From: an uncultured Candidatus Saccharibacteria bacterium
Lineage (GTDB): Bacteria > Patescibacteriota > Minisyncoccia > Phycocordibacterales > UBA2100
Assembly: GCA_964586255.1 (NCBI GenBank)
Contig: CAZPGE010000005.1
Span: 12,775-76,774, forward strand
Direction of reading: 5' to 3'
Length of the DNA: 64,000 nucleotides
The notes beneath the pieces were generated by a model. The model did not search any database, was not told the DNA's origin, and saw only the letters and a program-made list of their open reading frames with translations. The number at the start of each line of letters is the position of its first letter. Position 1 is the first letter of the stretch. Both the position numbers and the translations under genes were made by a program. Positions 32,289 through 62,095 of the stretch are shown here, piece by piece.

Positions 32289-33270
32289 GGCAATCCGTGC
32301 GTGCGCGGAGGCGGCTCTCAGCGCGCACGTCTTTCCTGGTTGCGCGGTGGGTATCGTGACGCAAGATGGCGCGACCGAGGTGGTGTCAGTGGGCACACAT
32401 ACGTATGAAGTGAATGCTCGTGCGGTGAACGCGGCAACGCTCTACGATGTCGCATCGATTACGAAGTCTATTCCCACTGCATCTCTCGCACTTGTTCTCG
32501 TCGAAGAGGGAGTCCTGTCGCTCGACGAATTGGTAAAGACCTCTCTACCAGAATTGCAGAACGACTTCGGAGCAAGGATACGCGACCTGCTCACCTACAC
32601 GGTAGCCGGCCCACGACTCTCCGAACTCAAAGAGCTTCCCGCAGAGAAGATGCTCGCTACAATTTTTGAGCGCGGTTTCGAAGGGCCGCCAGCCGAATCG
32701 AAATACACCAATCTTCCGGCACTTCTCTTGGGAATAATCCTCGAGCGTCGCATGAATACCACACTCGATATTCTTGCGAGACGCTATTTCTTTGACCCGC
32801 TAAAAATGCACGATACGGCTTTTTATGCCGGCGCGGCCTTTGTGCGCGCAGCACCGACGGAGTTGGAGGACTGGCGCGGCATGGTCTCCGGAGTCACGCA
32901 CGACGAAAGTGCATATACCCTCGCCAAGGCCGGACGCGCAGCAGGTCATGCGGGGCTTTTCTCCACAACAAACGATATCCTCGTATATCTGCACGCTCTT
33001 TTAGAAGAAAAAGACGCGCGTATGCGTGCGATTGTCCGCGGCGCTGAACAGGGTCTGGGTTGGCAGGTAGGGCAGGCCGCATGGATGGGCAACCTCGCGA
33101 GCCCCACGACTTTTGGGAAGACCGGCTTTACGGGTACGAGCGTCGTGGTCGACAGAGAACGTGGTGTCGCATTCTCCATCCTTTCCAACAGGACGTACCC
33201 GAAGCGACCGCCTATTGATGATGCGATTTACGCTTTCCGAGAAGACATTGCCAACATCATCCTTACCTGA
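32281..33270 (+). CDS. Serine hydrolase, beta-lactamase/PBP4*-like family
   Basis: SxxK active site (ASITKS) and a later YAL/GHAGLF region. Confidence 0.7.
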   Translation: MREAIRACAEAALSAHVFPGCAVGIVTQDGATEVVSVGTHTYEVNARAVNAATLYDVASITKSIPTASLALVLVEEGVLSLDELVKTSLPELQNDFGARIRDLLTYTVAGPRLSELKELPAEKMLATIFERGFEGPPAESKYTNLPALLLGIILERRMNTTLDILARRYFFDPLKMHDTAFYAGAAFVRAAPTELEDWRGMVSGVTHDESAYTLAKAGRAAGHAGLFSTTNDILVYLHALLEEKDARMRAIVRGAEQGLGWQVGQAAWMGNLASPTTFGKTGFTGTSVVVDRERGVAFSILSNRTYPKRPPIDDAIYAFREDIANIILT

Positions 33271-35029
33271 CAGTGACACTCTTCGCGATATTTCGCGGTT
33301 TGTCGACGTTGTGCTTTAGGGTGACCGCCATGAAATACGCGAGGAGCTGGAGGGGGATTACGTTCACGATTGCGGTCGTCTCTCCGCTGTCGGGCACCGG
33401 TAGGTAGTGACTGAAACTCTTCTCTGACTCAGGCGCGATACCAAATACACTGGCGCCGCGCGCATGTACCTCGTGTACGGCATTGAGTGTGTCGTTCTTT
33501 ACGGCGTCGTTGGATACGGTAACTATCACATTCACGCCCGGCTCCATAAGCGTAATGGCGTAGTGCTTGAGATCGCCCGCAGCGATTGCGTGCGCGTGCA
33601 CATACGCACCTTCAATCATCTTGACCATGCCTTCCTTGATGATTTGGAGATTTTGACCTTTTCCAAGGAGGAATATGTCTTTGCTTTTTGAGAGTCGCTT
33701 TGCATGTTCCTCTATACGTGACATGTACTTCTTGTCGCGAAGCATGTTCTCGATCGTGAGGGCTGTACGCTTGAGATTCCGTTTGCCCGCGGGAAGCGTG
33801 CCCTCTACAGCCTTCGCAAGGAGATACCCCCACGCAATCTGGGAGACAAATATCTTTGTCGACATGACGCAAATTTCGGGACCGGCGTGTGCCATGAATG
33901 CATAGTCGGAGAGGCGCGTCATCATGCTGCCCGGCATGTTTACAAACGACGCTATCTTTGCGCCGCGCTTCTTTGCTATCTCGAGTACCTCGAGCACGTC
34001 GGCTGTCTCGCCGCTTTGCGACGGCGCTATGAGCAGGTCCTTTGGACCTATGAGATCCCGATAGTCAGATGCTTCAGCGCCGATAAGTGAAATCGCGGGG
34101 ATGCCGCCGTACACGCGGAGGTAGTACGCGATTTGTGCTGCTGCGGCGCCCGCCGTGCCGGAGCCGATGCAATACACGGCTCGCGCTTTTTTGATGGCGC
34201 GGGCAAGAGCCATGTAGGTGTCCTCGGATTCGTGGGTCACCTGTCGCAATACGAAAGGTGCTTCGTGGATCTCTTTGAGCATGAAGTGCGGATACGTACC
34301 CTTGTCGACCGCGACGTCTTTGAGCAGATTCTTCTCGCGCTTTGCGCGGATCGCCTTGCCGGAAGCTATGTCGTACACGGCAAATGTGCCCGCCTGGTAC
34401 ACGGCCATCTGGCCGTTGTCGAGTACGAGTGTCTCTTTGACGTGGGGCGCAAATGAGAATATGTCGGAAGAGAAGTACACTTCCGAATCTTTTGCTCCGA
34501 ACCCGACGACAAGGGGGGAGCCGTTGCGTGCGGCGATAATGTCGCCGTTTTTCGCAAGCACGATGATGGTGTTGCGACCCGTGAGTTCTTTAAACGCAGC
34601 ACGCACGGCGTCTTTCAGCGGGAGTCGTTTGGAGAGCTTCTTCTCGACGAGGCGCACAATCGACTCGGTGTCGGTCTCCGTGATGAATCGGTAGCCTTCT
34701 TTGATGAGCGCACTTTTTATCACATCGGCATTCTCAGCGATGCCGTTGTGCGCCAGGATAAATGATTTGTCAGAAGAGAAATGCGGATGCGCGTTGATTT
34801 CTGTGACTGCGCCGTGCGTCGCCCAGCGGGTATGTCCGATACCAACCGAGCTCTGGGGGAGTGACTGCGTCTTTCCGACGATGCCGACTTTCTTCCCGAC
34901 ATGGAGACCGTCGTGCACCACGCCGATACCCCAACTGTCGTACCCGCGGTAATCAAGCCTTTGCAGTCCTTCCAAGACCGCACCCGCGGCGTCTCGCTTT
35001 ACGCCGGTATACCCAAATATTCCACACAT
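33263..35029 (-). CDS. glmS: Glutamine--fructose-6-phosphate aminotransferase
   Basis: MCGIFGYTG N-terminal nucleophile, SIS domains, C-terminal ...KSVTV(E/R). The true start is the Met of MCGIF at 35027-35029; the upstream MRAIALIR extension in the ORF track is spurious. Confidence 0.9.
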   Translation of the reverse strand: MCGIFGYTGVKRDAAGAVLEGLQRLDYRGYDSWGIGVVHDGLHVGKKVGIVGKTQSLPQSSVGIGHTRWATHGAVTEINAHPHFSSDKSFILAHNGIAENADVIKSALIKEGYRFITETDTESIVRLVEKKLSKRLPLKDAVRAAFKELTGRNTIIVLAKNGDIIAARNGSPLVVGFGAKDSEVYFSSDIFSFAPHVKETLVLDNGQMAVYQAGTFAVYDIASGKAIRAKREKNLLKDVAVDKGTYPHFMLKEIHEAPFVLRQVTHESEDTYMALARAIKKARAVYCIGSGTAGAAAAQIAYYLRVYGGIPAISLIGAEASDYRDLIGPKDLLIAPSQSGETADVLEVLEIAKKRGAKIASFVNMPGSMMTRLSDYAFMAHAGPEICVMSTKIFVSQIAWGYLLAKAVEGTLPAGKRNLKRTALTIENMLRDKKYMSRIEEHAKRLSKSKDIFLLGKGQNLQIIKEGMVKMIEGAYVHAHAIAAGDLKHYAITLMEPGVNVIVTVSNDAVKNDTLNAVHEVHARGASVFGIAPESEKSFSHYLPVPDSGETTAIVNVIPLQLLAYFMAVTLKHNVDKPRNIAKSVTVR

Positions 35030-35483
35030 ACGTATGAGTGCGATTGCTCGCAATTATGGAAAAGCGACTCCCGTCATTTTTTCTTTGTGCCCGCCGTTAC
35101 CGACGGGATTTCAAAAAAATGTTTCGGTAGGGAGACTACCGGAGGGTTTCCGCAGATACTATGCGCCGCTTCGCATGTCCGATTGTCGTCCGCCATTCGC
35201 CATCCGGCGAAGGCGGACCGACCCCTCTCCTCGTATCCCCAAATATGGGGCCACACGCTCTAAGAAACACATTCGCTTTCCGTTTTCTAATCACCGTCCC
35301 TGGGACGGCTCTCCACACAATACATCCGGTACGGAGGTGTGCAATGCACCCTTGCGCGATTCTCATGGTGTGCTAATTTCGAGATATGGCCCAGCGACGT
35401 CATATGATGAAGCGTCCTACGACCTCCCCTGAGGCGGCTGTTGCCATGCACGAGTAAACACATCATCCCGAGCAAGACAATCA

Positions 35484-35609: not shown

Positions 35610-36866
35610 ATGAGACTGTTCTTTACCGCGCATGCGCACGATAGTGTCGCTTTACGCGCGCTCAAGCTGCTCGGAGGCGATGGGCACGATATCTCCGTGC
35701 TTCAGCCAGGAGCAATGGCTACGAAGAGCTCTATCGCGCTCTTCAGTGTCGAGCAGGAGGTTCGCAACAGATTTTTGCGACTCTCCCCGTACCGTATGGC
35801 GCAAGAGGGCGTCGCGGTGCCACCGTGGGCGAGCGAGACTCCGTTTGTCGTCGCCATCAGCTCGGTCAGTGCCGTGCGGTATCCCGATGGTTTTCGTAGC
35901 GCGCTGCGAGACATGGCAAAAGTCTATGGCACTTGGGAGCCGTGGATGAAACGGCCGGTCGCGCCGTGGAATCCGGCGTGGCACACAAGTGCGCACGATG
36001 GATTCGCGCAGTGGATTGGGAGGGCACGGGACGCCTTCCCGAATGAATCCTGCGCGAAGAGGCTGGGATACCGACTTGCGCCCATCTTCCCAGTCAAGGA
36101 AGAGCGGGAGATACGGAAACTTGTCGTGACCGGCTGCGCGCTCTTCAACAAGCCGCACACCGACGTCGTGGATACCATGAGCCCGGAAAAAAGGCTTGAA
36201 GTGGTGCGGGGCCTCGAATCGATTGTGTCCGACTCCGGCGTGAACGACGTACGGTTTGTTGTGCCGCGTAGCGACTTGCTCCGGAGTGAGTTCAGAGAGC
36301 ACTTTCACCCGTTCATCTTCATGGACGTCGCGGACGTGTCGGCTCATCTCGGGAGCGGTCTCGTGGGTACCGCGCGGCTGCTTGGTGCTTCACACTTTCA
36401 CGCACGCAGTGATGCGGAAGTGGCACTCGCACTCAATCGATCGGGCGATGCACTCGTGCGCGATGTCGTCGTACCGCTCGCCGAGAGCACCGGTGTCCCA
36501 ATCGTACCGGTATCGTGGTCGGATTACATCGGGAAATACGTCGTTGATGCGATGGGGATAGTCTCCAAACATCGTGCGGTAGCAGAGGAAATCTACCTCG
36601 AACGGGTAAGGACGAGGCCATCGTACGCCTCGTTGCACAGCCTGGATCCCGAGCGGGGCCTCAAGCGAACTCTATCCAACAACGTGTTCTACGTCGCAGA
36701 GGCAATGTTCCTGAGGGACAATCCTGATGTCGCCGTAGTGAACTGCGAATTCGCAGACACATTCTGGAAAGGGCTCGAAGATGTCCTCAGTCGTGAAGTC
36801 TGGGGTGACTTCAGGCCGTATATCGGAATGGTCCCGGAACCGGTGAGGCAGCCCTGGGGCTACTGA
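35610..36866 (+). CDS. Hypothetical protein (418 aa), no family recognised
   Basis: Strong RBS (gaaAGGAGAatgcaATG); followed by a bidirectional terminator. Confidence 0.55.
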   Translation: MRLFFTAHAHDSVALRALKLLGGDGHDISVLQPGAMATKSSIALFSVEQEVRNRFLRLSPYRMAQEGVAVPPWASETPFVVAISSVSAVRYPDGFRSALRDMAKVYGTWEPWMKRPVAPWNPAWHTSAHDGFAQWIGRARDAFPNESCAKRLGYRLAPIFPVKEEREIRKLVVTGCALFNKPHTDVVDTMSPEKRLEVVRGLESIVSDSGVNDVRFVVPRSDLLRSEFREHFHPFIFMDVADVSAHLGSGLVGTARLLGASHFHARSDAEVALALNRSGDALVRDVVVPLAESTGVPIVPVSWSDYIGKYVVDAMGIVSKHRAVAEEIYLERVRTRPSYASLHSLDPERGLKRTLSNNVFYVAEAMFLRDNPDVAVVNCEFADTFWKGLEDVLSREVWGDFRPYIGMVPEPVRQPWGY

Positions 36867-36867
36867 T

Positions 36868-36910
36868 CAAAAAAGCCGCGCGGAGTTATCCGCGCGGCTC
36901 AATCTTTTTG
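36868..36910. terminator. Bidirectional rho-independent terminator between convergent genes
   Basis: aaaaa AGCCGCGCGG agttat CCGCGCGGCT caatcttttt. Confidence 0.6.
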
Positions 36911-36923
36911 AGTATTCGGTGGC

Positions 36924-37979
36924 TTAGATTTTTACAGTCTCTTCCCATGGGCGACCTGCGACGCCGAAGTGACCGTACGCTGCAGTCTCCTGGAAGATGG
37001 GGCGAGTGAGCCCGAGACGCTCGATGATGGCGCGAGGACGAAAGTCGAAGTTTTTGGTGACGAGCTCGGTGAGATTTTTACCTTCACCATCGAATGCTTC
37101 TATCATCACCGGCTCGATGCGCCCGATAGCGTAGGCTACCGATACGAGTGCCTTTTTGGCATGACCGTTTGCGACGAGGCTCTTTGCGGCAAAGCGGCAC
37201 ATGTACGCTGCCGAGCGGTCTACTTTGGTCGCATCTTTGCCGGAGAATGCACCGCCGCCATGCGGCATGAGTCCGCCGTACGTGTCGACCATGATTTTGC
37301 GGCCGGTGAGCCCGGCATCTGCAGTGAATCCGCCGAGGACGAATTTGCCGGTCGGGTTGACCAAGATTTCTATGTTGGAGACATCACCAAGAATTGGTGT
37401 GAAGAGGTGTTCGATAAGTGCTGCGCGGATGTCTTCCTGCGAGACCTCTTCGGCGTGCTGAGTAGAGGTAAGTGCCGTGACTACGGTGCCGCCGTTGGTG
37501 ATGGTGACCTGTGTCTTGCCGTCGGGCTTTACCCACGGAAGCGTGCCGTCGCGTCGAAGCTTCTCGAGCCTACGTGCGAGCGCGTGCGCGAGCACCACAC
37601 CTTTGGGGAGCATCTCCGGTGTCTCGTCGGTCGCGTAGCCGTACATGATGCCCTGGTCGCCGGCGCCGCCGGTGTCGACTCCCTGCGCGATGTCAGGTGA
37701 TTGTGCCTGGATAGTGTTGAGAATCTTGAGCTCGTCGGTGTAGCCGATCTGTGTGTATACATCTCGAGCAATCTTCTCAGCATCAATCTTGGCAGCAGTC
37801 TTTATTTCGCCGCCGAGCATTAAGGTGCCGTGGCTTCCGAAGCTCTCGACGGCGACGCGCGAGGCAGGGTCCTGCGTGAGGCACGCATCGAGTATTGCAT
37901 CGGATATCTGGTCGCATACTTTGTCGGGATGACCCGATGTGACGCTCTCTGTGGTGTACCTCTCAAGTAAATGGAACAT
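36924..37979 (-). CDS. metK: S-adenosylmethionine synthetase (short form, 351 aa)
   Basis: SESVTSGHPDKVCDQISDAILDA, GAGDQG and DTYGG motifs. Confidence 0.9.
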   Translation of the reverse strand: MFHLLERYTTESVTSGHPDKVCDQISDAILDACLTQDPASRVAVESFGSHGTLMLGGEIKTAAKIDAEKIARDVYTQIGYTDELKILNTIQAQSPDIAQGVDTGGAGDQGIMYGYATDETPEMLPKGVVLAHALARRLEKLRRDGTLPWVKPDGKTQVTITNGGTVVTALTSTQHAEEVSQEDIRAALIEHLFTPILGDVSNIEILVNPTGKFVLGGFTADAGLTGRKIMVDTYGGLMPHGGGAFSGKDATKVDRSAAYMCRFAAKSLVANGHAKKALVSVAYAIGRIEPVMIEAFDGEGKNLTELVTKNFDFRPRAIIERLGLTRPIFQETAAYGHFGVAGRPWEETVKI

Positions 37980-37990
37980 GTTATATCTCT

Positions 37991-38125
37991 AAACGATTAA
38001 TCTCCCCGTAAGGGAGATTCCGCGAATGAGGCATCTTCCCGTAAGGGCTGGATGGGGCACCACGTTTTTTAGGACAGGTTGCCGGCGGGTCGTAGAGCCA
38101 GAACTCTTACCGCACTCTTGATGTA
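37991..38125 (-). promoter_or_regulatory. Candidate SAM-I-type (S-box) riboswitch plus terminator in the metK 5' leader
   Basis: Minus-strand leader ACAUCAAGAG-UGCGGUAAGAGUUCUGGCUCUACGACCCGC-CGGCAACC-...-GGUGCCCCAUCCAGCCCUUACGGGAAGAUG reproduces the SAM-I blocks AUCAAGAG / CGGCAACC / GGUGC..AUCCAGC / GAAGAUG with a CAUC/GAUG P1. It is followed by the hairpin AAUCUCCC uuac GGGGAGAUU aaucguuu, 20 nt before the ATG. Confidence 0.55.
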
Positions 38126-38218
38126 TGGGGGGAGTCACGCAATCCTAACAGTGAATATGTTTCGCGCAAGTGCAAAGCTTTCGCATCACGACGCCCTGGT
38201 GTACGCTAAGTCGGAATT

Positions 38219-39163
38219 ATGAAAAAAGTGGTCACCATAGGGGGAGGGTCCGGAAGCTATACGATCCTGCAGGGTCTCAAGGAATTCCCGCTCGATATCA
38301 CGGCGGTCGTGACCATGTTCGACTCGGGTGGCTCGTCGGGAATCTTGCGCGACGAGATGGGTATCTTGCCGCCGGGAGATGTGCGCCGTTGTCTTGTGGC
38401 GCTCTCCGACGAGACACAACAGAAAATTCTCCGTGACCTTTTCAACTTTCGTTTCGAGGAAAACGGCTCGATGAGCGGGCATAGTTTTGGCAATCTTTTT
38501 CTCGCGGCGCTCTCGTCTATTTATGGTAGTGACATCGCCGCGATACAACGTGCGTCCGAACTCCTCGATCTCAAAGGCAGGGTACTCCCGGTCTCAGTCG
38601 ACAAATCGCATCTGCACGCCGAACTCGAGGATGGCACGAAGATTGTCGGTGAGACTAACATCGACATCCCTCAGCACGACGGCAATTTACGCATAAAGAA
38701 TGTTTTCCTGGAGCCGCCAGCGCATATCTACGAGGAGACAGACGCTGCTATCCGCGAAGCCGACCTAATCGTTATCGGCCCAGGGGATTTGTATACGTCG
38801 CTCGTCCCGAACCTCCTCGTCGATGGGATGTCTGAGGCGCTCAAATCGAGGAAAGGAAAAGTCGTAGTGGTGTGCAACCTCATGACAAAGTGGGGAGAGA
38901 CCGCAGGATTCGCAGCGTCAGACTTTGTGCGGGAGCTTCTGAAATACAGTGGTCTTCCAAAATTCGACTACGTGCTCTGCAATACGGCACCGATGGATGA
39001 GAGCCTCGTAAAGGCGTATGAAGCAGAGAAAAAGCAGCCACTCATGTACGACGCTGCGCTGAGTGCGCTCGCCGATAAAGTGATTACAGGAGGGTACTTT
39101 TCGGAAGCAGACATAGCGCGCCATGATTCAGAGAAAGTGGCACGTACGATTTCGGAGCTCTAA
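38219..39163 (+). CDS. yvcK: Gluconeogenesis factor / UPF0052 (YvcK, CofD-like) family protein
   Basis: TIGGGSGSYT...MFDSGGSSG and the 2-phospho-L-lactate-transferase-like fold signature. Confidence 0.85.
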   Translation: MKKVVTIGGGSGSYTILQGLKEFPLDITAVVTMFDSGGSSGILRDEMGILPPGDVRRCLVALSDETQQKILRDLFNFRFEENGSMSGHSFGNLFLAALSSIYGSDIAAIQRASELLDLKGRVLPVSVDKSHLHAELEDGTKIVGETNIDIPQHDGNLRIKNVFLEPPAHIYEETDAAIREADLIVIGPGDLYTSLVPNLLVDGMSEALKSRKGKVVVVCNLMTKWGETAGFAASDFVRELLKYSGLPKFDYVLCNTAPMDESLVKAYEAEKKQPLMYDAALSALADKVITGGYFSEADIARHDSEKVARTISEL

Positions 39164-52702: not shown

Positions 52703-52765
52703 GTTTTTCTAAAGCATTCCACATGCGGCGCCACGAATGTGGCGCCGCGCTGGTATGATTGGGCT

Positions 52766-55700
52766 ATGTCGAGCCTCGCAAGGCTATTCTTTCTTGTACT
52801 CATCAGTACATCTTTTTCGCTCCCGGGAAATGTGGCTGCGCTTTCGGCTGAGGCGAATGCGATGTGCAAGCCATACATCGCGGAGTGCCCGTGCAATCAG
52901 GTGCTGAATAAATGGAGGTTCATGCCCGGTCAGCCGAAGTGTAAGGCGGGTGGAGAGAAAAACGGCGCGGGATATAGCAATACACATGCGTGCAAGGTGG
53001 GTGTATGTAAAGACGTCACAAACGAACACGTGACACAGGGAGTGTGCATTGCGGCCGGGAAATGTGAGGGGAAGCTTGCAGACGACAAACCGGTACAAAA
53101 GACTGACGTGCCGGTGAAAGACGGCGATAAGCCGGTGACCGCTGAGCCGCCGCCTCCGCCATCGGTATCAGACACGGGTGATGTGACAGGTGGCATGCCG
53201 CAGAAACCGGAGGTGCCTGAGACGACTGTGCAAGACCCGACAAAGGACCTCCAGGAGACACCTGACACCGAAACCCCCATCCCGTCCGGCTCTGCGAAGA
53301 GTGTCGAAGATCAGTTGAAGGAAGCGGCAGGCGAGCCGAGTCTCTGGGAAAGGTGGTTTGGAGGTGAAACTACGCCGAAGCCGGAGACTCCTGCACAACC
53401 GGATGCTCCAGTGGGGCTCGACGGGCAGCCAGTGCAGACACTCCAGCCCGACGCAGTAGCCGACCCGCAATTGTCAGACACGGGAGTCGTTCAGACTCAG
53501 CCGGGAGAATCTACTCACACATTTGGTCAGCCTGAGGAGACCAAAACTGTCCCCGCGGAAGATGCTACGTGGTGGGGTGCGGTAAAAGATACTGCTTCTA
53601 ATGTTTGGGAGGGGGCGAAAGATATTGCGGCGAACGTGCGCGACACAGTGGCGGGCGCGTTTACATCGGATACACCATCGACTCCAAGTATCGGTGAGAT
53701 AGAGATGCCACCGCCGCCGGCGGAAGTGCCGACGTTAGCAGACACGACAACCGGTGGAACACCAGAGCCGGTACCCGCAGGCGCCAGCGCGGAGCCATCC
53801 GCGACGCAACTCAATACACCGGGAAATGTGGGACCAGTGCCGTATGCAGAAGAGCTTTCGAAACTTGGCTTCGGCAATGACTTGCTGGGAAGCAGGCTCA
53901 AAGAATTGAATGGACTTATTCAAAATGGCAATGATCGGATTGAAGCGGGAAATGCGGACCTCACAACGCGAAAAGAGTCGCTCGATGCGCAGTATGCGCA
54001 GCTGAAGAGCGCGTGTGCTGCGAATACGTGCACACAGTCACAAATAGACACATACAAAGAACGAGCAGCTGCGTACGACCGAGATGCAGCAACGCATAAA
54101 AAACTCGCAGAACAAACGAGGGAATACGTCGACTCCGCGAAAGCGATAGCCTCTGCATTGAACAAGCCAACAGACCTCTCTGCGTATACGGGACGCGTGC
54201 CTGATACACCGGAAAATAAGTTTGTGAGCGATGTATCGCGCGCGGCGCTCGGAGAAATATCGAGGCAAGAGGTGAATGCATTCTGGAACGATACGCCCGC
54301 AAGTGACCTGGTGACAGAGAGATCTCGAATCGCGGGGAATGCTTTTGAGGCGGCGACACACAATGTCACTCCATCACAAGTTGCCGACGCGTTTGGAGAT
54401 TCTGCGCGGCTCTCGGATATTCGGAATCAGACTGCAATTACAGCGGCACAGGAGCAGCTTCGACAAATAGAAACGATTCGTTCGGATACGCCGATTAGCC
54501 AGCTCACACCCGAGCAAGCGGACCTCCTCTATAGAGAGCCGCTCATACGCGAGGAGCTCACTCGACTCGAAAGTGAGTCGCAGTCTCGTGCAGAGAGGAC
54601 TGAGAATATCCAACACGCTCTCCGCAACAGTCAGTATGGAGAGCAGCTGGCGCGCGCGCTGACTACCGAACCAAAAACGCCAGTTGAGCGACTTATACAA
54701 GAGCAGCTCTATTTGAAAGCGGCGGAATTATCGCGCAACAACTTCGCCGCCGAATTGCTTAGGAATACGGAGCAAGCACCGACGGGGCTTACGCCGGAAG
54801 ATTATTACATCCCGGTGGATACCGGGAAAAATGTGTACACGGATGGGGCAGCACAAGCGGATAGGCATATCGGAGAATTGACGGGTGCTCTCAAGCCGTC
54901 ACCGGAAACACAGAGTCTCTTAGACCGCGTAAATGGCAACGAATCATTCGGCCGATATGCTCCGCGAGCGCTCGCTGATGCGACAAATTTCATCGCGGAC
55001 TTGCCCGCAAAAGGATTGGAAGCATTGGGTGTGAACAGCACGGTAGCACATGTGGCCAACGGCATTCTCAACCCGGTCAAATGGGGAGCGGCTGCCTATG
55101 ATGCGTACCTCACGCTTTCGGGCAACCCAAGTACAGAGAGAATGCTCAGCGAGTATGGCATGTCGTCTGGAGAGAGGACATTCGCGCGAGTGATGGATTA
55201 CGCGTCGATAGCTGGTGCGGTCGCCCCATCGCGTGCCCTCATGGGTCTTGGGTCGACCAATGAAATCGGTGTTGTGGCCGAATCGTCGCGCGCATTTACA
55301 TTGAGTGATTCGGTCGCGACGAATGCAGCACGTGTAGAATTGCCGGCGCGAGATTTCGGAGCGGGCGCGTATAAGCATGTCGGCGATACGCCGCTTGGTC
55401 CTGTCTATGCGGCCGACACGCTCCCGTCTGTAGCATCGAGGGTTTCAAACACGGAACGGCAAGCCATCGAAGCGCTTAGCGGCAGGTCGCTCACATCTGC
55501 CGACCGCACGATACTCTCGCAAGTGGGACTTGAAGCGCGGCCATACGGAACCGTACAGGCGGAAATAACGAGAGGTGCGGGCGTGGCGCAGATTACCGAA
55601 AGTGTAAACATCCAGCGAACGGCGCTGGTTAACGGCAATGGGGAAGTAGTGGCTGTCCAAAGCCGCGTCCTCGGCTCTGGCGCGGCAAATTTCGATGCAA

Positions 55701-58700
55701 TGGAAAGATTTGCAATCGTTGCAACTCCGGAAAACACAGGAGTATTCGCATCGCTGCGCCAGCAATTCGACAATTGGTTTGGCCGTTCGGAGCCGACTCC
55801 GAGCGCGCGGCCAACGACGGCAGATGCGACACCGTCTTCCGCTGGTGATACGACACCTTCGGCACGCCCCGCCGATACTCCGGCGCTCCTAGAGTCTCCT
55901 CGAGGCACGACTCCATCTCGTACCGCAGACGTGCCTGATGGTGCGGTGCCGACAACTCCTCGAACAGCTGCAACAGACGGGCAAATCAGCGAAATCGGTC
56001 GTCCACAAAATCTCCCAGATGCACCCGCTGCTCCTCGTGATGTCACGCCAGCGAATACGCCTGATGTCCCTGTGGTCCAGACACCCGACGCGCCTCTTGT
56101 ACCCGACGGAGCGCCAGGAGTGATTCCTGCAGAACCTCTTGCCTCTACTTTGCCGACTACTGGATGGAACCCGAGTGAGTCGCTTGCGAGATTCGCGAAA
56201 GCGAGTGTCGTAGCATTTGGTCTTCTTCACAGCCCAGTGTCTCCGCTTGTCGATACGGCCGTAGCCAGAGGTGTATCAGGCGTGCCGGGCACCGTCTCAG
56301 TAAAAGCCTGTCTTTCAGACTGGACGTGTCTTACGCCGGAGACGGGACTCGGTAAGCGATACGAATTGAACAACGTAGGGTCCAATGGCGGGAACAGGAC
56401 CGCATCTGGCTACCAGCCAGGGCCAAAGGACATGCTCATCGCTTCGCAGACATATCCACTCGGCACATATGGAGAGCTATGCAACGGCGGCAGATGCACG
56501 AAGGTATTTGTAGGCGACACAGGCAATTTCAATCAGGCAAAATATCGCTACGCCAAATTTGACCTGCTCCCACAAGTGTCTTCGGTCGTAGGTCCGACGG
56601 CTGCACAGGGGAGGACGACGATGACGTTTACGCCGTATGGAATAGCAAAGGTAGAAGATGCCGCGGCAATTACGCGAGCAATGAACGCGGGGACTGCATA
56701 CCCCGATGCGGTCGCGCAGATACAGAACAAAGTAATTGCATACGCGCCGGGGAAGAGCGTCGAGCCGACAGCTGTAGCACAGGCTGCGCCGCCCGTCCCG
56801 CAAACACCGACGAGAGTCGCAGATATATCGCCCGCAGTACCCGCAAGCCAGCCAGCGGCAGCGGGGGAGCCGCGGTCTGCTGGGCCTCGTACAGCACTTC
56901 CGGCAGAGCTCGACACTTCGACTTGGACCACGAGGCGCATAGTCGATTCTTTTGTGCCGACGAAGACACCGGTACAGGTCGTCGCTGCAGAGCTCGCGAA
57001 TCCTACGGCAGAAATAAATGCGCTTTCATCGGCGCTCGTCGCAGACGGAATCATCCCTCGAGGCTCGACGGTCACTGCGGCCGCGGATGGGACGACGAAT
57101 GTACGAATTCCGAGCGGGGAGGTGCAGACACTCAAGGTAGTGGTTCCCGAAGCACCTGCCAATCTCAATATCACAGCACCGCGTGTCAGTGTCGGCGAGC
57201 TCAGAAAAGTGTACGCGCAGACAAAGAGTCCCGACATAGGCCGGGTGCTCAGGGCAATTGATGAGCGCGGATTCAATACCGTCCCTGACCGCGCATTTTT
57301 GAACAACGACACTCTCAAACAGCTCGTCGGAGTCTTGCGCGACTACGACAGAATGTTCCCCGGTCAGGTGCCTATCATCAATGAATTGAGCGACACTATC
57401 GGGCGCCCCTTCTCTAGCACTCACACATTTGGTCAAGCTATCGACTTCCGTGCGCGCGAGTGGAGCCCGCAAGTGAAAGCGTTGCAGAATATCTTGCTCT
57501 CACATGGGATGGCGACCCCATATTCGCTCTTCCACGGTACCGGCCCGCACTTGCATGCGGACGGGGGAGAAGTGAAAGCCGCGGATGCCTCGAATCTCAA
57601 CATCTCATACAAGACCGCACCGCAATACGCGCTGCACGATGCAGAGGGTGCGCAGGTGGGGAAACAATTCGCGCTCGGTGGACCGAAAGCTGCGCCAGTA
57701 CCGCCGACAAAGGTGGCAACCGCCCCGCTCCCGAAGCCGTCTCCAGCCCAAGTCGCAATCGGTACATTTGAACCACCGGCGCCGACAAGACCCGGCCCCG
57801 CATTTACTGCGGACAATGTGCCGGCCGAATGGAAGCAGTCGCCAATCACTGTGGCGGAAGCGAAGCCTCCCGTTACAGCCCCTGAGCCTGCGGCAGTGAC
57901 CGTGCCTCCTGCGCCAAAGGCGCCTATCGCTAAACCCGCGCCGATTCAGGCTGCGGAGATTGTTCCTGTCCCGAAGCCACGACCAACTGTATCCTCGACG
58001 AAAGTACCTACAGTCACAAAAGCTGCGACTCGCAATGTTCAGCCGAAAGCAAAGAATCAGGTTGCAGTCACGAAGCAGTTGCCCCCTGTAGATACGCGGT
58101 CAGCCGATGAAATCGCAGCGCAGATGCTCGCACTCAACAACAAAGTAGCTGCACAACTGAAGGTTCCGCCCGCCGAAGCGATGCCGAAGCTTCTAGAGAG
58201 AAATACTAAAATTGGCCAGTCTCTGAAGTCCGTGCAGGCTATAAAGAGCGAGCTCGATGAGCTGGCTAATAAAGTAGTGAGTACGTCTTTGAAGTCTCAG
58301 ACACTCTATGACCAGGGCAACACCGCCGCTTCTAAGGTTGAAGGAAACAAAGTCCAACCTCTTTTCCAGCAACTCGTGGCGCATACAAAGCAACTTTCCA
58401 CGGAAGCTCTTACTGAGGCTGATATTAAAGCGGTGCAAGCAGCGGCCGGTCGTGCTAACTCGGCAGCAAATGTACTCGAGGACACCATTCATCCAGACAA
58501 GGTTGTGGGTATCTATATGAACTCGAAAAATCCCGACGGCACGGCAAAGTTTGCGGACCAAGCTGCATTCGTGAAGTACGTAAAGGGGCTGGCGGGGAAT
58601 TTCCGTGGCAGTGTGGCGCAAGTTTCGTCACCTTTGTCTACCAAGATCAAGTCGTATCAAGTGGAGATTGCTTCCAATGACGCTCTCCTCAATCAATCAA

Positions 58701-61700
58701 AGCAGTTGATGGCCGCAAAACTCAATGCGGATAGCTTGGGTGCCAAGTACGCGCTCGAGCAACTTGAAGGACAGAAAGCGACCGACGAGGCGAATGCGAG
58801 AATAGCGGCCCTCCCTCCTATTGCGGGCCTCGAGGACCTCCTCCAGTCGCCGATTGTTTCGCGAGAAGCTCGTGATGTACCGCTTTCAGAACTTTTTTCC
58901 GAGCTGAAGAATGACGTGTTGGCATTTGCACGGGAAGAGCTCGGCTTGTTTGGCGGTCCGGGTTCTGGGGGACGCACTGTCACCGTAGAGGTCGCGCCAT
59001 CGGTAAAAACTCCTGAAGTCGCCCCGGCGAAAGTTGCCGCGGTTGAAGTGCCCCCTGCTAAGAGTGCTCAAGTGCGGCCGGGGAGTGCCGCACCTACATC
59101 CGCCGTACCATCCTATGTGCCGCGCATCGCGCGATTTGGCACGGAACCTGGCACGGGACCAGTCGTGTATTCTACGCCGGCGAATATTCCTGTATTGCAG
59201 GCGCGCATGAATGTGGCGATTAGGCCTCGCAAGCCTGAAATACAAGCGGGAAGCGGAGGGCAAATATCCCCGACGCCGCGGCTCGAACCACTTCCACCGG
59301 TGCCGAGCGCAGAAGCTGCTGCGCTCGCGAGAGAGCAAGCCTTGCGTAACCCAATCGTAGGTACCGATGATTTTGCGAATTTCCCACGGCAAAAACTCGA
59401 GGGAGAGGATGCACTGCTGCAAGAGGCCGCGATTGCCAAATATGTATCAAACAAAGAGCAATTGCTCGATACGTATGAAGCCCATTTTGGTACGAAGGTC
59501 GTCAATCCCGACCTCGCGAGGCTGCTCTTCAGGGATATGGGCTATACGGGAGTCAATTCGGCCGCAGTACAAAAAGTTGTCGCCGACATGACCGACGAGC
59601 TATGGAAACGTGCGCTCGCAAACAACCCTGAAGATTATGTTGTCCTCTACACAGGTTCGGCTGGCTCGGGTAAATCAAGCTCGATAAACAACGTACTTCC
59701 TGAGATGGAGGCACGGGCCGCCGTGATTATGGATGGCACTCTCTCCAACAAGGTGCTCGCCGAGCAGAGAATTGCGGAAGCGCTCGCGGCAGGGAAGCAA
59801 GTTGAAGTCATTAATGTGTATCGCGATCCAGTAGACGCATGGAACAACGGCGTCATCGCTCGTATGAAAGATGCGCAGTCGATTGATGCTGGAAGAGTCG
59901 TACCCATATCGGTATTCGTAATGGGATATAAGCGTTCGATGGAAGTTGTGAATTCATTGCTTACCAATCCGCGTGAGGGTGTGCATGTGAGTTTGATAGA
60001 AAACGTGATTCCCGGCTCACCGAGTGAGATGAGTCCGGAGCGTTTCCAAAGCATCCGGTACTCATCGAGTATAGAGCGAACGATTCGCAACAACACCGCT
60101 GATCTTCTTGGGCGTGGAGAAATCACACCACGGCAGTACGAGGCAATCACGGGTGCGGAAGCGCCAGGCAAGCTCGCGCTCGTCGCCGACGAGCCGATCG
60201 TGCCGGTGGATAGAGAGATTCCATCTCTTACCGAGCCGGTAGCGACTGCTCCGGAGGGCCCTGTCGCGGCACTTTGGACAGGGGATGGTGTCGAGGAAAG
60301 GCTCGCATGGATACGCGGGGTGCCAGAGAGAGTCACATTAGGTCTGCAAAACTCAGTGAACAAAATTCGTGATCTAATTCCAAGCGTACAAGAGCAGACG
60401 TATCTTCCGCCTGCCGTGACACAAGCGGAGGCCGAGAGCCTTGCGCGGATAGAAGGGGCACTTCTCGATATAGACGCACGATTTCCACGGGAAGTACCCG
60501 ACGATGTGCTCGCCACACTTGAGAGAGAGCTGCAGCAGCAGGTGGCGGGGCTGAGACCATCTGAGATTGACACCATCGCGCAAAAAAGTCTCTGGCAGCG
60601 TACGAAAGAATTCTTCTCACCGAGTAAAGAATCGACCGGTGCCGCGGTGCGAGAGCCCGAGCAGCTCCAACTGCCGCTCGATGAGCCCGTACAATCGGGA
60701 CGACCGCAGGTCGATGCTACTCCCGAGCAGGTGCCAACCTCGCGCCAAGGGGAGCTCTTCCCCGAAGAGCAGCTAGAACTGCAATTCCCGACGACGGGGG
60801 ATTATGTTCAGGCGAATCTGCCGCTCGATGAGCCAGCGCAGCCGACTCGAATTCCTGACACACCAATCCAGCGTGAGCTTCCCCTCGAGTCGCCGCTTAC
60901 GGAGACGCAGCTCGAGCTCCCGCTCACTCAGAGACAGCCCGGTCTGATAGAAAGAATTCGCAATCGTATTGTAGGTACGTCGAAACCATCCGTCACCGAA
61001 CCCGTATCAGGTACAAACTATCGATACAATCCCGTCACCGACCGCTTGGAGCCAATCGCTGTCGCGCCATCGCCGGCATCGACACCGAGCCCGGCGCCAG
61101 CCGCGGAATCACGGTCGCTCACCGTGGGAAGTACCGAGGCATTCGGCGGGGCTCTACCGCCAGCAAGCGGGAAAACGCTCGCAGGGAAATTTGGCAGCGC
61201 TTCGTGGGGCACCGCAAAATTCCTGTGTGGTGGATGGAGGCGTGCAGCGTTTTGTGGCGCCGTGGGGACAGGAGTATATCTGACTGCTTCGGGGTCATCG
61301 GACCCAACATCGCCCGCAGCACCTACTGGGGGCAGTCAGCCAGGCACGGTGAGGCCGACGACTGCAGGTACTCAGACACCTACTGCGCCTTCCGCTCCAG
61401 GCACGACCCCTGCCGGCTCCGTATCGAGTCCAGTGACGCCTATACCAACACCGACTCCGACACCGACTCCGACTCCGACACCCGTCCCAACTCCTACGCC
61501 GACGCCGGCACCAGCTCCAAAACCAGGGAATCAACCAGCTCCTTCTCCTGCGCCGGTTCCGACGCCCGTGCCACTACCGAAGCCAAGACCGGACGGAGCA
61601 CCTGCGCCTGTGCCCGCACCGCAGCCTCAGCCGCAACCTGCTCCGGTCCCATCTCCTGCACCGGCACCGTCACCCGAACAGCCAACAAAGTCTGGCTCAG

Positions 61701-62095
61701 GAAGCTCGGCAGGCAGTATCGGGAGCCTGCTTGGCTCGCTCATGAACTATCTCGGTCTTGGAAACAATAGTCAGCCGAAGCCTGCGCAGCAGCCGACGAC
61801 GCCGACCCGAACTCCGACATCAACATCGACACCGACAACGGTAAAGCCGATTGTGTCGCTTGTGCCAAATCCTGCCCGTGTGAAAGCGGGATCGACCGCA
61901 GTGCTCTGGTGGGCAAGCATCGGTACGACAGAGTGCTCCGTATCGGATTCTGAAGGCACTGTGCTTGTGAAAGGTTCTTCGACTGGAAAGGCCACGACAG
62001 CAGCAATACAAGCAACATCAAAATTCACCGTGACCTGCAAAGCTCGTTCTGGCGAAGACGTCCGCGCGGAGACGACCGTCTCGCTCGCTGAGTAG
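52766..62095 (+). CDS. Giant secreted multidomain protein (about 3110 aa): Cys-rich N-domain, coiled coils, 3D domain, LAS-type Zn-metallopeptidase domain, zeta-toxin/CPT-like P-loop kinase domain, PT-repeat linker, C-terminal Ig-like domain
   Basis: One uninterrupted ORF. Signal peptide MSSLARLFFLVLISTSFSLPGNVAA starts at 52766, with TATGAT 6 nt upstream. The 3D-domain motif YGELCNGGRCTKVFVGDTGNF...FDLL is near 56.45 kb. The LAS motif STHTFGQAIDF (H-x6-D) ...HGTGPHLHADGG (H-x-H) is near 57.4-57.56 kb. Walker A VLYTGSAGSGKSS then AVIMDGTL is near 59.65 kb. (PT)n runs 61.44-61.52 kb. Confidence 0.8.
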   Translation: MSSLARLFFLVLISTSFSLPGNVAALSAEANAMCKPYIAECPCNQVLNKWRFMPGQPKCKAGGEKNGAGYSNTHACKVGVCKDVTNEHVTQGVCIAAGKCEGKLADDKPVQKTDVPVKDGDKPVTAEPPPPPSVSDTGDVTGGMPQKPEVPETTVQDPTKDLQETPDTETPIPSGSAKSVEDQLKEAAGEPSLWERWFGGETTPKPETPAQPDAPVGLDGQPVQTLQPDAVADPQLSDTGVVQTQPGESTHTFGQPEETKTVPAEDATWWGAVKDTASNVWEGAKDIAANVRDTVAGAFTSDTPSTPSIGEIEMPPPPAEVPTLADTTTGGTPEPVPAGASAEPSATQLNTPGNVGPVPYAEELSKLGFGNDLLGSRLKELNGLIQNGNDRIEAGNADLTTRKESLDAQYAQLKSACAANTCTQSQIDTYKERAAAYDRDAATHKKLAEQTREYVDSAKAIASALNKPTDLSAYTGRVPDTPENKFVSDVSRAALGEISRQEVNAFWNDTPASDLVTERSRIAGNAFEAATHNVTPSQVADAFGDSARLSDIRNQTAITAAQEQLRQIETIRSDTPISQLTPEQADLLYREPLIREELTRLESESQSRAERTENIQHALRNSQYGEQLARALTTEPKTPVERLIQEQLYLKAAELSRNNFAAELLRNTEQAPTGLTPEDYYIPVDTGKNVYTDGAAQADRHIGELTGALKPSPETQSLLDRVNGNESFGRYAPRALADATNFIADLPAKGLEALGVNSTVAHVANGILNPVKWGAAAYDAYLTLSGNPSTERMLSEYGMSSGERTFARVMDYASIAGAVAPSRALMGLGSTNEIGVVAESSRAFTLSDSVATNAARVELPARDFGAGAYKHVGDTPLGPVYAADTLPSVASRVSNTERQAIEALSGRSLTSADRTILSQVGLEARPYGTVQAEITRGAGVAQITESVNIQRTALVNGNGEVVAVQSRVLGSGAANFDAMERFAIVATPENTGVFASLRQQFDNWFGRSEPTPSARPTTADATPSSAGDTTPSARPADTPALLESPRGTTPSRTADVPDGAVPTTPRTAATDGQISEIGRPQNLPDAPAAPRDVTPANTPDVPVVQTPDAPLVPDGAPGVIPAEPLASTLPTTGWNPSESLARFAKASVVAFGLLHSPVSPLVDTAVARGVSGVPGTVSVKACLSDWTCLTPETGLGKRYELNNVGSNGGNRTASGYQPGPKDMLIASQTYPLGTYGELCNGGRCTKVFVGDTGNFNQAKYRYAKFDLLPQVSSVVGPTAAQGRTTMTFTPYGIAKVEDAAAITRAMNAGTAYPDAVAQIQNKVIAYAPGKSVEPTAVAQAAPPVPQTPTRVADISPAVPASQPAAAGEPRSAGPRTALPAELDTSTWTTRRIVDSFVPTKTPVQVVAAELANPTAEINALSSALVADGIIPRGSTVTAAADGTTNVRIPSGEVQTLKVVVPEAPANLNITAPRVSVGELRKVYAQTKSPDIGRVLRAIDERGFNTVPDRAFLNNDTLKQLVGVLRDYDRMFPGQVPIINELSDTIGRPFSSTHTFGQAIDFRAREWSPQVKALQNILLSHGMATPYSLFHGTGPHLHADGGEVKAADASNLNISYKTAPQYALHDAEGAQVGKQFALGGPKAAPVPPTKVATAPLPKPSPAQVAIGTFEPPAPTRPGPAFTADNVPAEWKQSPITVAEAKPPVTAPEPAAVTVPPAPKAPIAKPAPIQAAEIVPVPKPRPTVSSTKVPTVTKAATRNVQPKAKNQVAVTKQLPPVDTRSADEIAAQMLALNNKVAAQLKVPPAEAMPKLLERNTKIGQSLKSVQAIKSELDELANKVVSTSLKSQTLYDQGNTAASKVEGNKVQPLFQQLVAHTKQLSTEALTEADIKAVQAAAGRANSAANVLEDTIHPDKVVGIYMNSKNPDGTAKFADQAAFVKYVKGLAGNFRGSVAQVSSPLSTKIKSYQVEIASNDALLNQSKQLMAAKLNADSLGAKYALEQLEGQKATDEANARIAALPPIAGLEDLLQSPIVSREARDVPLSELFSELKNDVLAFAREELGLFGGPGSGGRTVTVEVAPSVKTPEVAPAKVAAVEVPPAKSAQVRPGSAAPTSAVPSYVPRIARFGTEPGTGPVVYSTPANIPVLQARMNVAIRPRKPEIQAGSGGQISPTPRLEPLPPVPSAEAAALAREQALRNPIVGTDDFANFPRQKLEGEDALLQEAAIAKYVSNKEQLLDTYEAHFGTKVVNPDLARLLFRDMGYTGVNSAAVQKVVADMTDELWKRALANNPEDYVVLYTGSAGSGKSSSINNVLPEMEARAAVIMDGTLSNKVLAEQRIAEALAAGKQVEVINVYRDPVDAWNNGVIARMKDAQSIDAGRVVPISVFVMGYKRSMEVVNSLLTNPREGVHVSLIENVIPGSPSEMSPERFQSIRYSSSIERTIRNNTADLLGRGEITPRQYEAITGAEAPGKLALVADEPIVPVDREIPSLTEPVATAPEGPVAALWTGDGVEERLAWIRGVPERVTLGLQNSVNKIRDLIPSVQEQTYLPPAVTQAEAESLARIEGALLDIDARFPREVPDDVLATLERELQQQVAGLRPSEIDTIAQKSLWQRTKEFFSPSKESTGAAVREPEQLQLPLDEPVQSGRPQVDATPEQVPTSRQGELFPEEQLELQFPTTGDYVQANLPLDEPAQPTRIPDTPIQRELPLESPLTETQLELPLTQRQPGLIERIRNRIVGTSKPSVTEPVSGTNYRYNPVTDRLEPIAVAPSPASTPSPAPAAESRSLTVGSTEAFGGALPPASGKTLAGKFGSASWGTAKFLCGGWRRAAFCGAVGTGVYLTASGSSDPTSPAAPTGGSQPGTVRPTTAGTQTPTAPSAPGTTPAGSVSSPVTPIPTPTPTPTPTPTPVPTPTPTPAPAPKPGNQPAPSPAPVPTPVPLPKPRPDGAPAPVPAPQPQPQPAPVPSPAPAPSPEQPTKSGSGSSAGSIGSLLGSLMNYLGLGNNSQPKPAQQPTTPTRTPTSTSTPTTVKPIVSLVPNPARVKAGSTAVLWWASIGTTECSVSDSEGTVLVKGSSTGKATTAAIQATSKFTVTCKARSGEDVRAETTVSLAE

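Follow-up and report, generated by a model that had tools for sequence, protein, structure and literature searches.

Does the leader of metK, the S-adenosylmethionine (SAM) synthetase gene carried by a 64,000-nucleotide stretch of contig CAZPGE010000005.1 (hereafter the window), contain a riboswitch that senses SAM, and how would such an element act on the gene? metK is a classic target of the SAM-I (S-box) family. A first look at the letters alone (the sequence-only reading) had proposed a SAM-I-like riboswitch on the minus strand of this leader, acting by SAM-off attenuation. We followed up that proposal by comparison with Rfam and with related metK leaders, and consider it probable that the leader is a SAM-I riboswitch that turns off metK transcription when SAM is plentiful. 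Feature coordinates are collected in Table 1.

Identification of a SAM-I aptamer upstream of metK

A permissive scan of 401 nucleotides (nt; 37900-38300) aligned RF00162 (SAM-I/S-box) over model positions 1-108 to 38127-38028, with a score of 41.7 bits and E = 2.8e-8. Aptamer positions are numbered such that position n is window coordinate 38128 - n. This full-length match, together with clade-wide covariation for every helix and for the pseudoknot (below), bears out a SAM-I-like riboswitch in the metK leader. The sequence blocks quoted in its favour are all present on the minus strand: AUCAAGAG (38122-38115), CGGCAACC (38084-38077), GGUGC (38061-38057), AUCCAGC (38053-38047), and GAAGAUG (38038-38032). 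The interval originally given, 37991-38125, clips the 5' end of the aptamer by 2 nt. RF00162 was the retained best-scoring member of clan CL00012 at this site, and the element lies in the 5' leader of a SAM-metabolism gene, as expected of a family found ahead of genes for sulfur, methionine or SAM metabolism. The product of that gene matched the Pfam domains S-AdoMet_synt_N, _M and _C with E-values from 6e-31 to 8e-52. The nearest homologs of this MetK protein were named as Parcubacteria or Candidatus Kaiserbacteria, and from these names the host genome appears to be a Kaiserbacteria-like member of the Candidate Phyla Radiation (CPR)/Patescibacteria.

A scan of the whole window at Rfam gathering thresholds returned no SAM element, only a glmS ribozyme. 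The gathering cutoff of RF00162, 44.4 bits, is operational and not a structural feature. To place the score of the window we used related leaders, retrieved by a protein search with MetK and so unbiased as to the leader. Among 160 metK loci, 68 were treated as CPR-like (MetK identities of approximately 49-89%), and 61 had enough upstream sequence. RF00162 scored at the cutoff or above in 22 of the 44 related metK loci scanned (45.4-69.8 bits) and was significant yet below the cutoff in 11 (30.6-43.7 bits); no match at E <= 0.01 was found in the other 11 of the 44. Rfam itself placed RF00162 directly upstream of metK in related loci. Scores in the closest lineage of the window ranged from 39.0 to 45.5 bits. 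The 41.7 bits of the window falls inside a continuum, and the cutoff splits one set of co-positioned, mutually alignable metK leaders.

A covariance model was built from 31 related leaders, with its structure projected from the Rfam alignment. The clade models R1 and R2 scored the window aptamer at 87.5 and 85.9 bits, respectively, and located a single copy in the 64-kb window, at 38027/38028-38127. The clade model gave 52 matches in 51 of the 61 related loci, with the element upstream of metK. It also picked up metK leaders of Clostridia, Oscillospiraceae, and Ureibacillus at 33-65 bits, and the CPR leaders are therefore of the same family as the Firmicutes S-box. On these comparisons we assign the metK leader element to the SAM-I (S-box) aptamers, an identity that is well supported. 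Family, target gene, and mechanism are all textbook; what is new is a further SAM-I instance, in CPR. In the literature library available for searching, no paper specific to SAM riboswitches in CPR/Patescibacteria was found.

Helices, pseudoknot, and covariation

Known SAM-I examples include the Bacillus subtilis metK and yitJ leaders and the Thermoanaerobacter tengcongensis metF aptamer (PDB 2GIS). The window element resembles the family in its P1-P4 junction, its predicted P2 kink-turn, its pseudoknot between L2 and J3/4, and its position upstream of metK. Pairs were counted over 53 related sequences in an alignment that was fitted to the model and is biased towards the structure; 88.6% of paired cells were filled by a pair, compared to 78.2% in shuffles (0 of 500 shuffles as high) and at most 48% when the 3' partners were slid. 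Compensatory changes occurred in 24 of the 33 pairs. P1 to P4 follow each other in the consensus order of a four-way junction, with individual helices 74-100% paired.

The CAUC/GAUG helix noted in the sequence-only reading is real, and its four base pairs (bp) make up the whole of P1 in the window (C5-G96, A6-U95, U7-A94, and C8-G93). The inner four P1 pairs were at least 96% paired across the relatives, and the fifth pair covaries (UA in 27, GC in 8, and AU in 7). Both P2 and P4 had been described as short. P2 is not, having the full consensus number of pairs (5+3). P2a was 94-97% paired and P2b 100%, with compensatory changes in each P2 pair. P4 is indeed short, with 3 bp versus 6+1 in the Rfam consensus. 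Three is also the CPR median, while the median of non-CPR comparators is 4 bp. P4 was 96.2% paired and each of its three pairs shows compensatory changes; P3 was 88.7% paired.

An L2:J3/4 pseudoknot, as in other SAM-I aptamers, is present. It had been proposed as UGGC with GCC; the interaction exists, while covariation supports other partners, CUGG (27-30; 38101-38098) with CCAG (77-80; 38051-38048). This pairing was found in 95.6% of cells and all four pairs covary, with the variants CCGG:CCGG, CUAG:CUAG, and CGAG:CUCG among relatives. The pseudoknot lies outside the covariance model and covaries all the same. A register using the CCA of J3/4 was rejected, as it is not kept in three relatives (L082, L005, and L111).

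Two departures from this architecture were seen among the relatives. In six aptamers (L083, L097, L102, L084, L081, and L087), 42-76 nt separate the P2b strands, normally 5-7 nt apart, apparently forming extra hairpins; several of these were missed by Rfam at E <= 0.01 and found by the clade model. L091 contained tandem SAM-I-like matches, 1170-1273 and 1360-1439, upstream of one metK. The second was weak (31.6 bits) and without P2, and could represent a tandem or a degenerate duplicate aptamer.

The predicted SAM pocket

The conserved SAM-pocket nucleotides in 2GIS are A6, U7, G11, A12, C44, A45, C47, U57, G58, C59, A87, and U88 (PMC3764141). Each has its counterpart in the window (A6, U7, G11, A12, C47, A48, C50, U69, G70, C71, A94, and U95), and these are invariant or nearly so among the 53 relatives. 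C47, A48, C50, U69, G70, and C71, which correspond to 2GIS C44, A45, C47, U57, G58, and C59, are invariant in 53 of 53. The pocket core segments AUC-AAGAG, GCAAC, GGUGC, and AGAU are identical to those of SAM-I. At the level of the family, alignment and covariation establish the predicted fold, the pseudoknot, the intact pocket nucleotides, and their conservation across relatives. Because every pocket nucleotide is conserved, SAM would be expected, by homology, to be the ligand and to bind between P1 and P3.

Expression platform and proposed mechanism

The metK AUG lies at 37979, and 48 nt separate it from the 3' end of the aptamer. Within this platform is a hairpin (38019-37999) of 9 bp with 4 G-C pairs and a ΔG of -12.3 kcal/mol, ending 19 nt before the AUG. 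Hairpins of the same type occur in 42 of the 51 relatives with a scorable linker. The sequence-only reading had described a hairpin and a U-rich tract approximately 20 nt before the ATG; the hairpin stands, and the tract proved weak and interrupted. Counting U from after the last G-C pair of the stem, runs of at least 5 follow the corresponding hairpin in 27 of 34 relatives outside the subclade of the window, and runs of 5-8 are found in most relatives. In the subclade the U-tract is interrupted (UUAAUCGUUU), and the tail AAUCGUUUAG is weakly U-rich. L166 and L167, the 92% relatives, have the same stem followed by AUAUUUUGUUUUUU. Considered as an intrinsic terminator, the leader has a suitable hairpin and lacks at least 5 U in 8, which L166, L167, and 27 of 34 distant relatives possess. 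The window tail scored -2.0 to -3.3, mostly overlapping the range of the presumptive 3'-end terminators of this genome, which likewise have short or interrupted U-tracts.

An alternative pairing is available to the 3' strand of the aptamer. GGGAAGAUGCC can pair with 38021-38012 to form a helix of 3+4+2 bp with a ΔG of -10.2 kcal/mol, compared to +3.3 kcal/mol for P1 and P4 alone. This helix is present in the unconstrained minimum-energy fold of the nascent transcript, and in the nascent fold of 35 of 42 relatives. In counts uncorrected for shared ancestry, the hairpin arm rich in pyrimidines is the 5' one in 41 of 42 loci, and in 39 of 42 this 5' arm is a better partner for the aptamer 3' strand than the 3' arm is. 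From these folding models, the helix may act as an antiterminator. The arrangement would resemble known SAM-I leaders, in which the 5' arm of a terminator hairpin competes for the aptamer 3' strand, and terminator/antiterminator attenuators in general, in which a G+C-containing hairpin before the open reading frame (ORF) is exclusive with an upstream alternative helix.

The mechanism we propose runs as follows. Transcription would start near 38135 from a TTGCGC-N16-TGnTAGGAT promoter. The first 100 nt (38127-38028), as homology and covariation show, fold as the SAM-I four-way junction, with CUGG of L2 paired to CCAG just before P4. SAM bound between P1 and P3 would lock GGGAAGAUGCC (38040-38030) into P4 and P1; this would leave the hairpin at 38019-37999 free to form, halting RNA polymerase in the U-rich tail (37998-37987), short of the AUG at 37979. 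When SAM is absent, the weak P1 and P4 would give way, GGGAAGAUGCC would pair with the 5' arm of the hairpin (38021-38012) as the antiterminator, and metK would be transcribed. SAM-off attenuation upstream of SAM synthetase, as first suggested, remains the best reading. Within it, we think termination at the imperfect U-tract fairly likely. Because this tract is interrupted, we infer termination from homology and conservation, not from a canonical terminator signature.

A 17-codon ORF (38034-37981, minus strand; MPHSRNLPYGEINRLEI) also spans the platform, with its AUG in the P1 3' strand and its UAA 1 nt before the metK AUG. We set it aside as probably coincidental, because the stop is lost in the relatives with 96-97% MetK identity and most relatives have GAUA instead of GAUG.

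Conservation within the closest lineage

The window was compared with its close relatives L161-L165, whose MetK proteins are 96-97% identical to that of the window. Third codon positions of metK differ by 40-43%. Differences were found at 10 of 49 positions in the intergenic DNA upstream of the promoter, at 9-13 of 28 in the promoter segment, and at 12-14 of 100 in the aptamer, where the distal loop of P3 also differs by a 9-nt indel. One substitution and one indel were seen in the 48-nt platform, both in its last few bases ahead of the AUG, and the 40 nt that make up linker, hairpin, and tail are unchanged. If these sites diverged neutrally like third positions, the chance of 40 unchanged sites would be approximately 0.6^40, or about 1e-9. 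P2b underwent a compensatory exchange within the lineage, from G22-C33 in the window to A-U in L161-L165 or the reverse. These comparisons show that purifying selection has acted on the element in this lineage.

Weighing the reading against its alternatives

Several observations weigh against a working SAM-I switch in the window. The RF00162 score falls 2.7 bits under the gathering cutoff. P1 has only 4 bp, with an A.C mismatch in place of the fifth pair, and canonical SAM-I positions are altered (G19 to A in the kink-turn, A24 to U in L2, A61/A62 to CC in J3/4, and J4/1 one nt shorter). In the platform, the tail counted from the last G-C pair (AUUAAUCGUUUA, including AUU at the stem base) contains 6 U in 12 with a longest run of 3. 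Runs of at least 5 U are found in none of the 8 members of the subclade. The leader stem, at -9 to -12 kcal/mol, is weaker than the 3'-end terminators of the genome (-15 to -29 kcal/mol), and a consensus terminator scan did not call the leader hairpin. Complementarity of the antiterminator was no better than in composition-matched shuffles or with a reversed arm, in a control whose arm definition clipped some arms; the lack of significance is explained by polypurine-polypyrimidine pairing, which tolerates many registers.

On the first of these points, the sequence-only reading had named the RF00162 score as its own check and a value below threshold among the grounds for giving it up. Formally that is the outcome (41.7 versus 44.4 bits), yet the match is significant and half of the scanned relatives pass.

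The platform observations raise the alternative that the SAM-I sensor is real and the hairpin of the subclade is no longer an intrinsic terminator, acting instead on translation initiation, on mRNA stability, or through NusA/NusG-type or Rho-dependent termination. Unlike canonical intrinsic terminators, the window tail UUAAUCGUUU has U-runs of 3 at most and is not recognised by the consensus scan, and the interruption is shared by 8 of 8 subclade members as against canonical runs in 27 of 34 other relatives. The perfect conservation of tail and linker is also more than a simple stem and U-run would need, and in L098 and L027 a GGAGG 3' arm lies 7-13 nt from the AUG, which would fit a dual role in termination and Shine-Dalgarno sequestration within the family. 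In the window, however, 19 nt lie between the hairpin and the AUG, and the GGGGAG is approximately 22 nt upstream, too distant for a Shine-Dalgarno sequence. None was found before the metK AUG in the leaders of the subclade, which argues against a translational platform; for both reasons, we rejected Shine-Dalgarno sequestration for the window. In addition, the 3'-end terminators of the genome itself have similar interrupted U-tracts and tail scores, and the 92% relatives have retained the leader hairpin together with a good U-tract. We consider this alternative unlikely, if the most serious of those weighed here, and prefer attenuation by termination.

In some distant relatives (L098, L027, L096, and L026), only 7-15 nt separate the AUG from the 3' arm of the terminator, which is rich in purines (GGAGG or GGGAG); there the hairpin could both terminate transcription and mask the ribosome-binding site.

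The altered aptamer positions raise a different possibility, that the element is a decaying or re-purposed S-box relic with a changed tertiary hub that binds another ligand or no SAM at all, with the hairpin serving as a constitutive attenuator. The positions concerned are best seen beside 2GIS, where the kink-turn has tandem sheared G19.A36 and A20.G35 pairs. In the window the 1b.1n pair, of G.A type, is present (A21.G37), and the 2b.2n pair is A20.A38 (A at 38108), not A.G. CPR sequences carry G at this 2b.2n position in 34 cases, U in 10, and A in 7; in the 96-97% relatives it is the canonical G. In the crystallised aptamer, A61 is among the highly conserved nucleotides and A62 takes part in a triple with P2b (PMC3764141). 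Of 28 non-CPR members, 26 have AA at the start of J3/4, but other forms occur often in CPR, including CCAU in 8 and CCCU in 2 of the 53 members. The window L2, UUCUGG, is without the conserved adenosine A24, such that the counterparts of A61, A62, and A24 are all replaced. J4/1 (38036-38037) has two nt instead of three, one A fewer. The J3/4 and L2 adenosines are peripheral tertiary contacts, not ligand contacts.

Taken as a list, the differences of the window from canonical SAM-I (4-bp P1, 3-bp P4, A.A kink-turn, CCAU J3/4, L2 without its conserved A, J4/1 shorter by one nt, interrupted U-tract, a score 2.7 bits under the cutoff, and a CPR host) include what would speak for a relic: the sub-threshold score, the P1 of 4 bp, the kink-turn, J3/4, the lost L2 adenosine, and the shortened J4/1. 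Against this, no nucleotide that contacts the ligand has changed. At 40% synonymous divergence, hardly any change is seen in the platform or in the 3' two-thirds of the aptamer, and together with the compensatory P2b exchange in the lineage this points to selection that still maintains the fold. Many other CPR leaders with otherwise full covariation show the variant features too. We regard a relic as improbable, and a functional SAM-I aptamer as the better account of these data.

SAM-IV (RF00634) and SAM-I/IV (RF01725) belong to the same clan, CL00012; they have the SAM-I-like ligand-binding core and a different pseudoknot, and are not known to carry the SAM-I P4. That the element is one of these rather than SAM-I proper we consider very improbable, since, for all that its P4 is minimal and a lower-scoring overlapping match to another CL00012 family was suppressed in the scan, RF00162 is the best-scoring clan member, and unlike those families the window has a covarying P4 in the SAM-I position and a pseudoknot of the SAM-I type, L2:J3/4.

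Variation of the tertiary hub across CPR

The relaxed tertiary hub of the clade (J3/4 changed to CC or deleted, short J4/1, and minimal P4 and P1) is the sole mildly unusual aspect of the system, and is why Rfam narrowly misses CPR copies. A J4/1 of 2 nt (AA) occurs in 6 of 8 aptamers with CCAU in J3/4 and in 2 of 45 other CPR aptamers, counts uncorrected for phylogeny, and the association of CCAU with a short J4/1 may be tertiary co-variation. Besides the window, L012, L082, L005, L111, L102, L016, and L106 were noted for the J3/4-J4/1 pattern. J3/4 is cut to a single U (GGUGCC-U-CCA) in L166 (1049-1144), L167, L168 (1034-1128), L081, and L026, removing the adenosines seen to touch P2b in the crystal structure; the Rfam score of L168 is nonetheless 45.5 bits.

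More speculatively, CPR may carry a slimmed SAM-I subclass with a remodelled hub and, in Kaiserbacteria-like members, a terminator without a U-run. Its features would be J3/4 adenosines changed to CC or a single U, J4/1 shortened together with CCAU, loss of the L2 adenosine, a P4 of 3 bp, and a P1 of 4-5 bp. We hold this to be doubtful.

Candidate promoter and neighbouring features

The metK leader sits within a 239-nt divergent intergenic region, opposite a CofD-family gene (38219-39163) transcribed away from metK. Upstream of the aptamer, the motif TTGC[GA]N is conserved in six leader lineages (the window, L161-L165, L166/L167, L168, L002, and L001, the last as TCGCCC) while its flanks diverge. 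TGnTAnnAT is invariant in all 11 aligned leaders. These would form a -35 element 16 nt upstream of an extended -10 element, and from this spacing alone transcription would start near 38135, just upstream of P1. A generic sigma-70 scan did not call the leader promoter. Between the putative start and P1 is a C-run, CUCCCCCC (38128-38134, minus strand), which is complementary to GGGGAG in the 3' arm of the terminator; it is kept in the closest lineage of the window and in L002, not in L166-L168.

Table 1. Features of the metK leader and coding region, in window coordinates
Feature	Position	Strand	Basis
Candidate -35 hexamer TTGCGC	38164..38169	-	conservation; inferred
Candidate extended -10 TGT-TAGGAT	38142..38150	-	conservation and spacing
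SAM-I (S-box) aptamer, four-way junction	38028..38127	-	RF00162 41.7 bits; clade models; covariation
P1 5' strand CAUC, pairs with GAUG 38032-38035	38120..38123	-	pairing and covariation
P2 (P2a 5 bp, predicted kink-turn, P2b 3 bp, loop L2)	38084..38115	-	pairing and covariation
Pseudoknot 5' strand in L2, CUGG, pairs with CCAG 38048-38051	38098..38101	-	covariation
P3 with predicted SAM pocket (C47 A48 A49 C50 ... G68 U69 G70 C71)	38056..38083	-	conservation
J3/4, CCAU (canonical SAM-I AAUU or AAAU)	38052..38055	-	alignment
P4, CCC-UUAC-GGG, 3 bp	38038..38047	-	pairing and covariation
Putative switching strand GGGAAGAUGCC (P4 3' strand, J4/1, P1 3' strand)	38030..38040	-	predicted alternative pairing with 38012-38021
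Terminator-type hairpin AAUCUCCCU-UAC-GGGGAGAUU	37999..38019	-	folding and conservation
Interrupted U-rich tail AAUCGUUUAGAG	37987..37998	-	sequence; invariant in close relatives
metK (S-adenosylmethionine synthetase), 351 aa, regulated gene	36924..37979	-	Pfam domains

Further along the window, the glmS ribozyme (RF00234; 35065-35270, minus strand; 65.5 bits) has a 67-nt insertion relative to the model and precedes a GlmS-type ORF (33263-35053, minus strand) with GATase and SIS domains. The synteny of metK and the glmS ribozyme is shared by L001, the closest genome relative, in which the ribozyme scores 52.6 bits. A strong bidirectional terminator-like hairpin, GCCGCGCGGA-loop-UCCGCGCGGC (36873-36900, both strands; approximately -22 kcal/mol), lies between metK and a convergent 418-aa ORF (35610-36866), for which no Pfam match was found. 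A single ORF of approximately 3,100 aa occupies 52739-62095 on the plus strand; giant proteins are common in CPR genomes.

Implications

With this analysis a textbook regulator reaches a lineage whose genomes are very small and in which few regulators can be recognised. Most of the Parcubacteria-type metK loci that we sampled have a metK S-box. A third or more of these CPR copies fall below the Rfam cutoff and hence go unannotated; a clade-specific model would recover them. Their natural variation in J3/4, J4/1, and the kink-turn offers ready-made 'mutants' for testing how dispensable the SAM-I tertiary scaffold is. A slimmed CPR subclass, if real, might fold or tune SAM sensing unlike the crystallised Firmicutes aptamers and might terminate transcription non-canonically. 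For the organism itself, a feedback loop is expected, in which SAM would repress its own synthetase.

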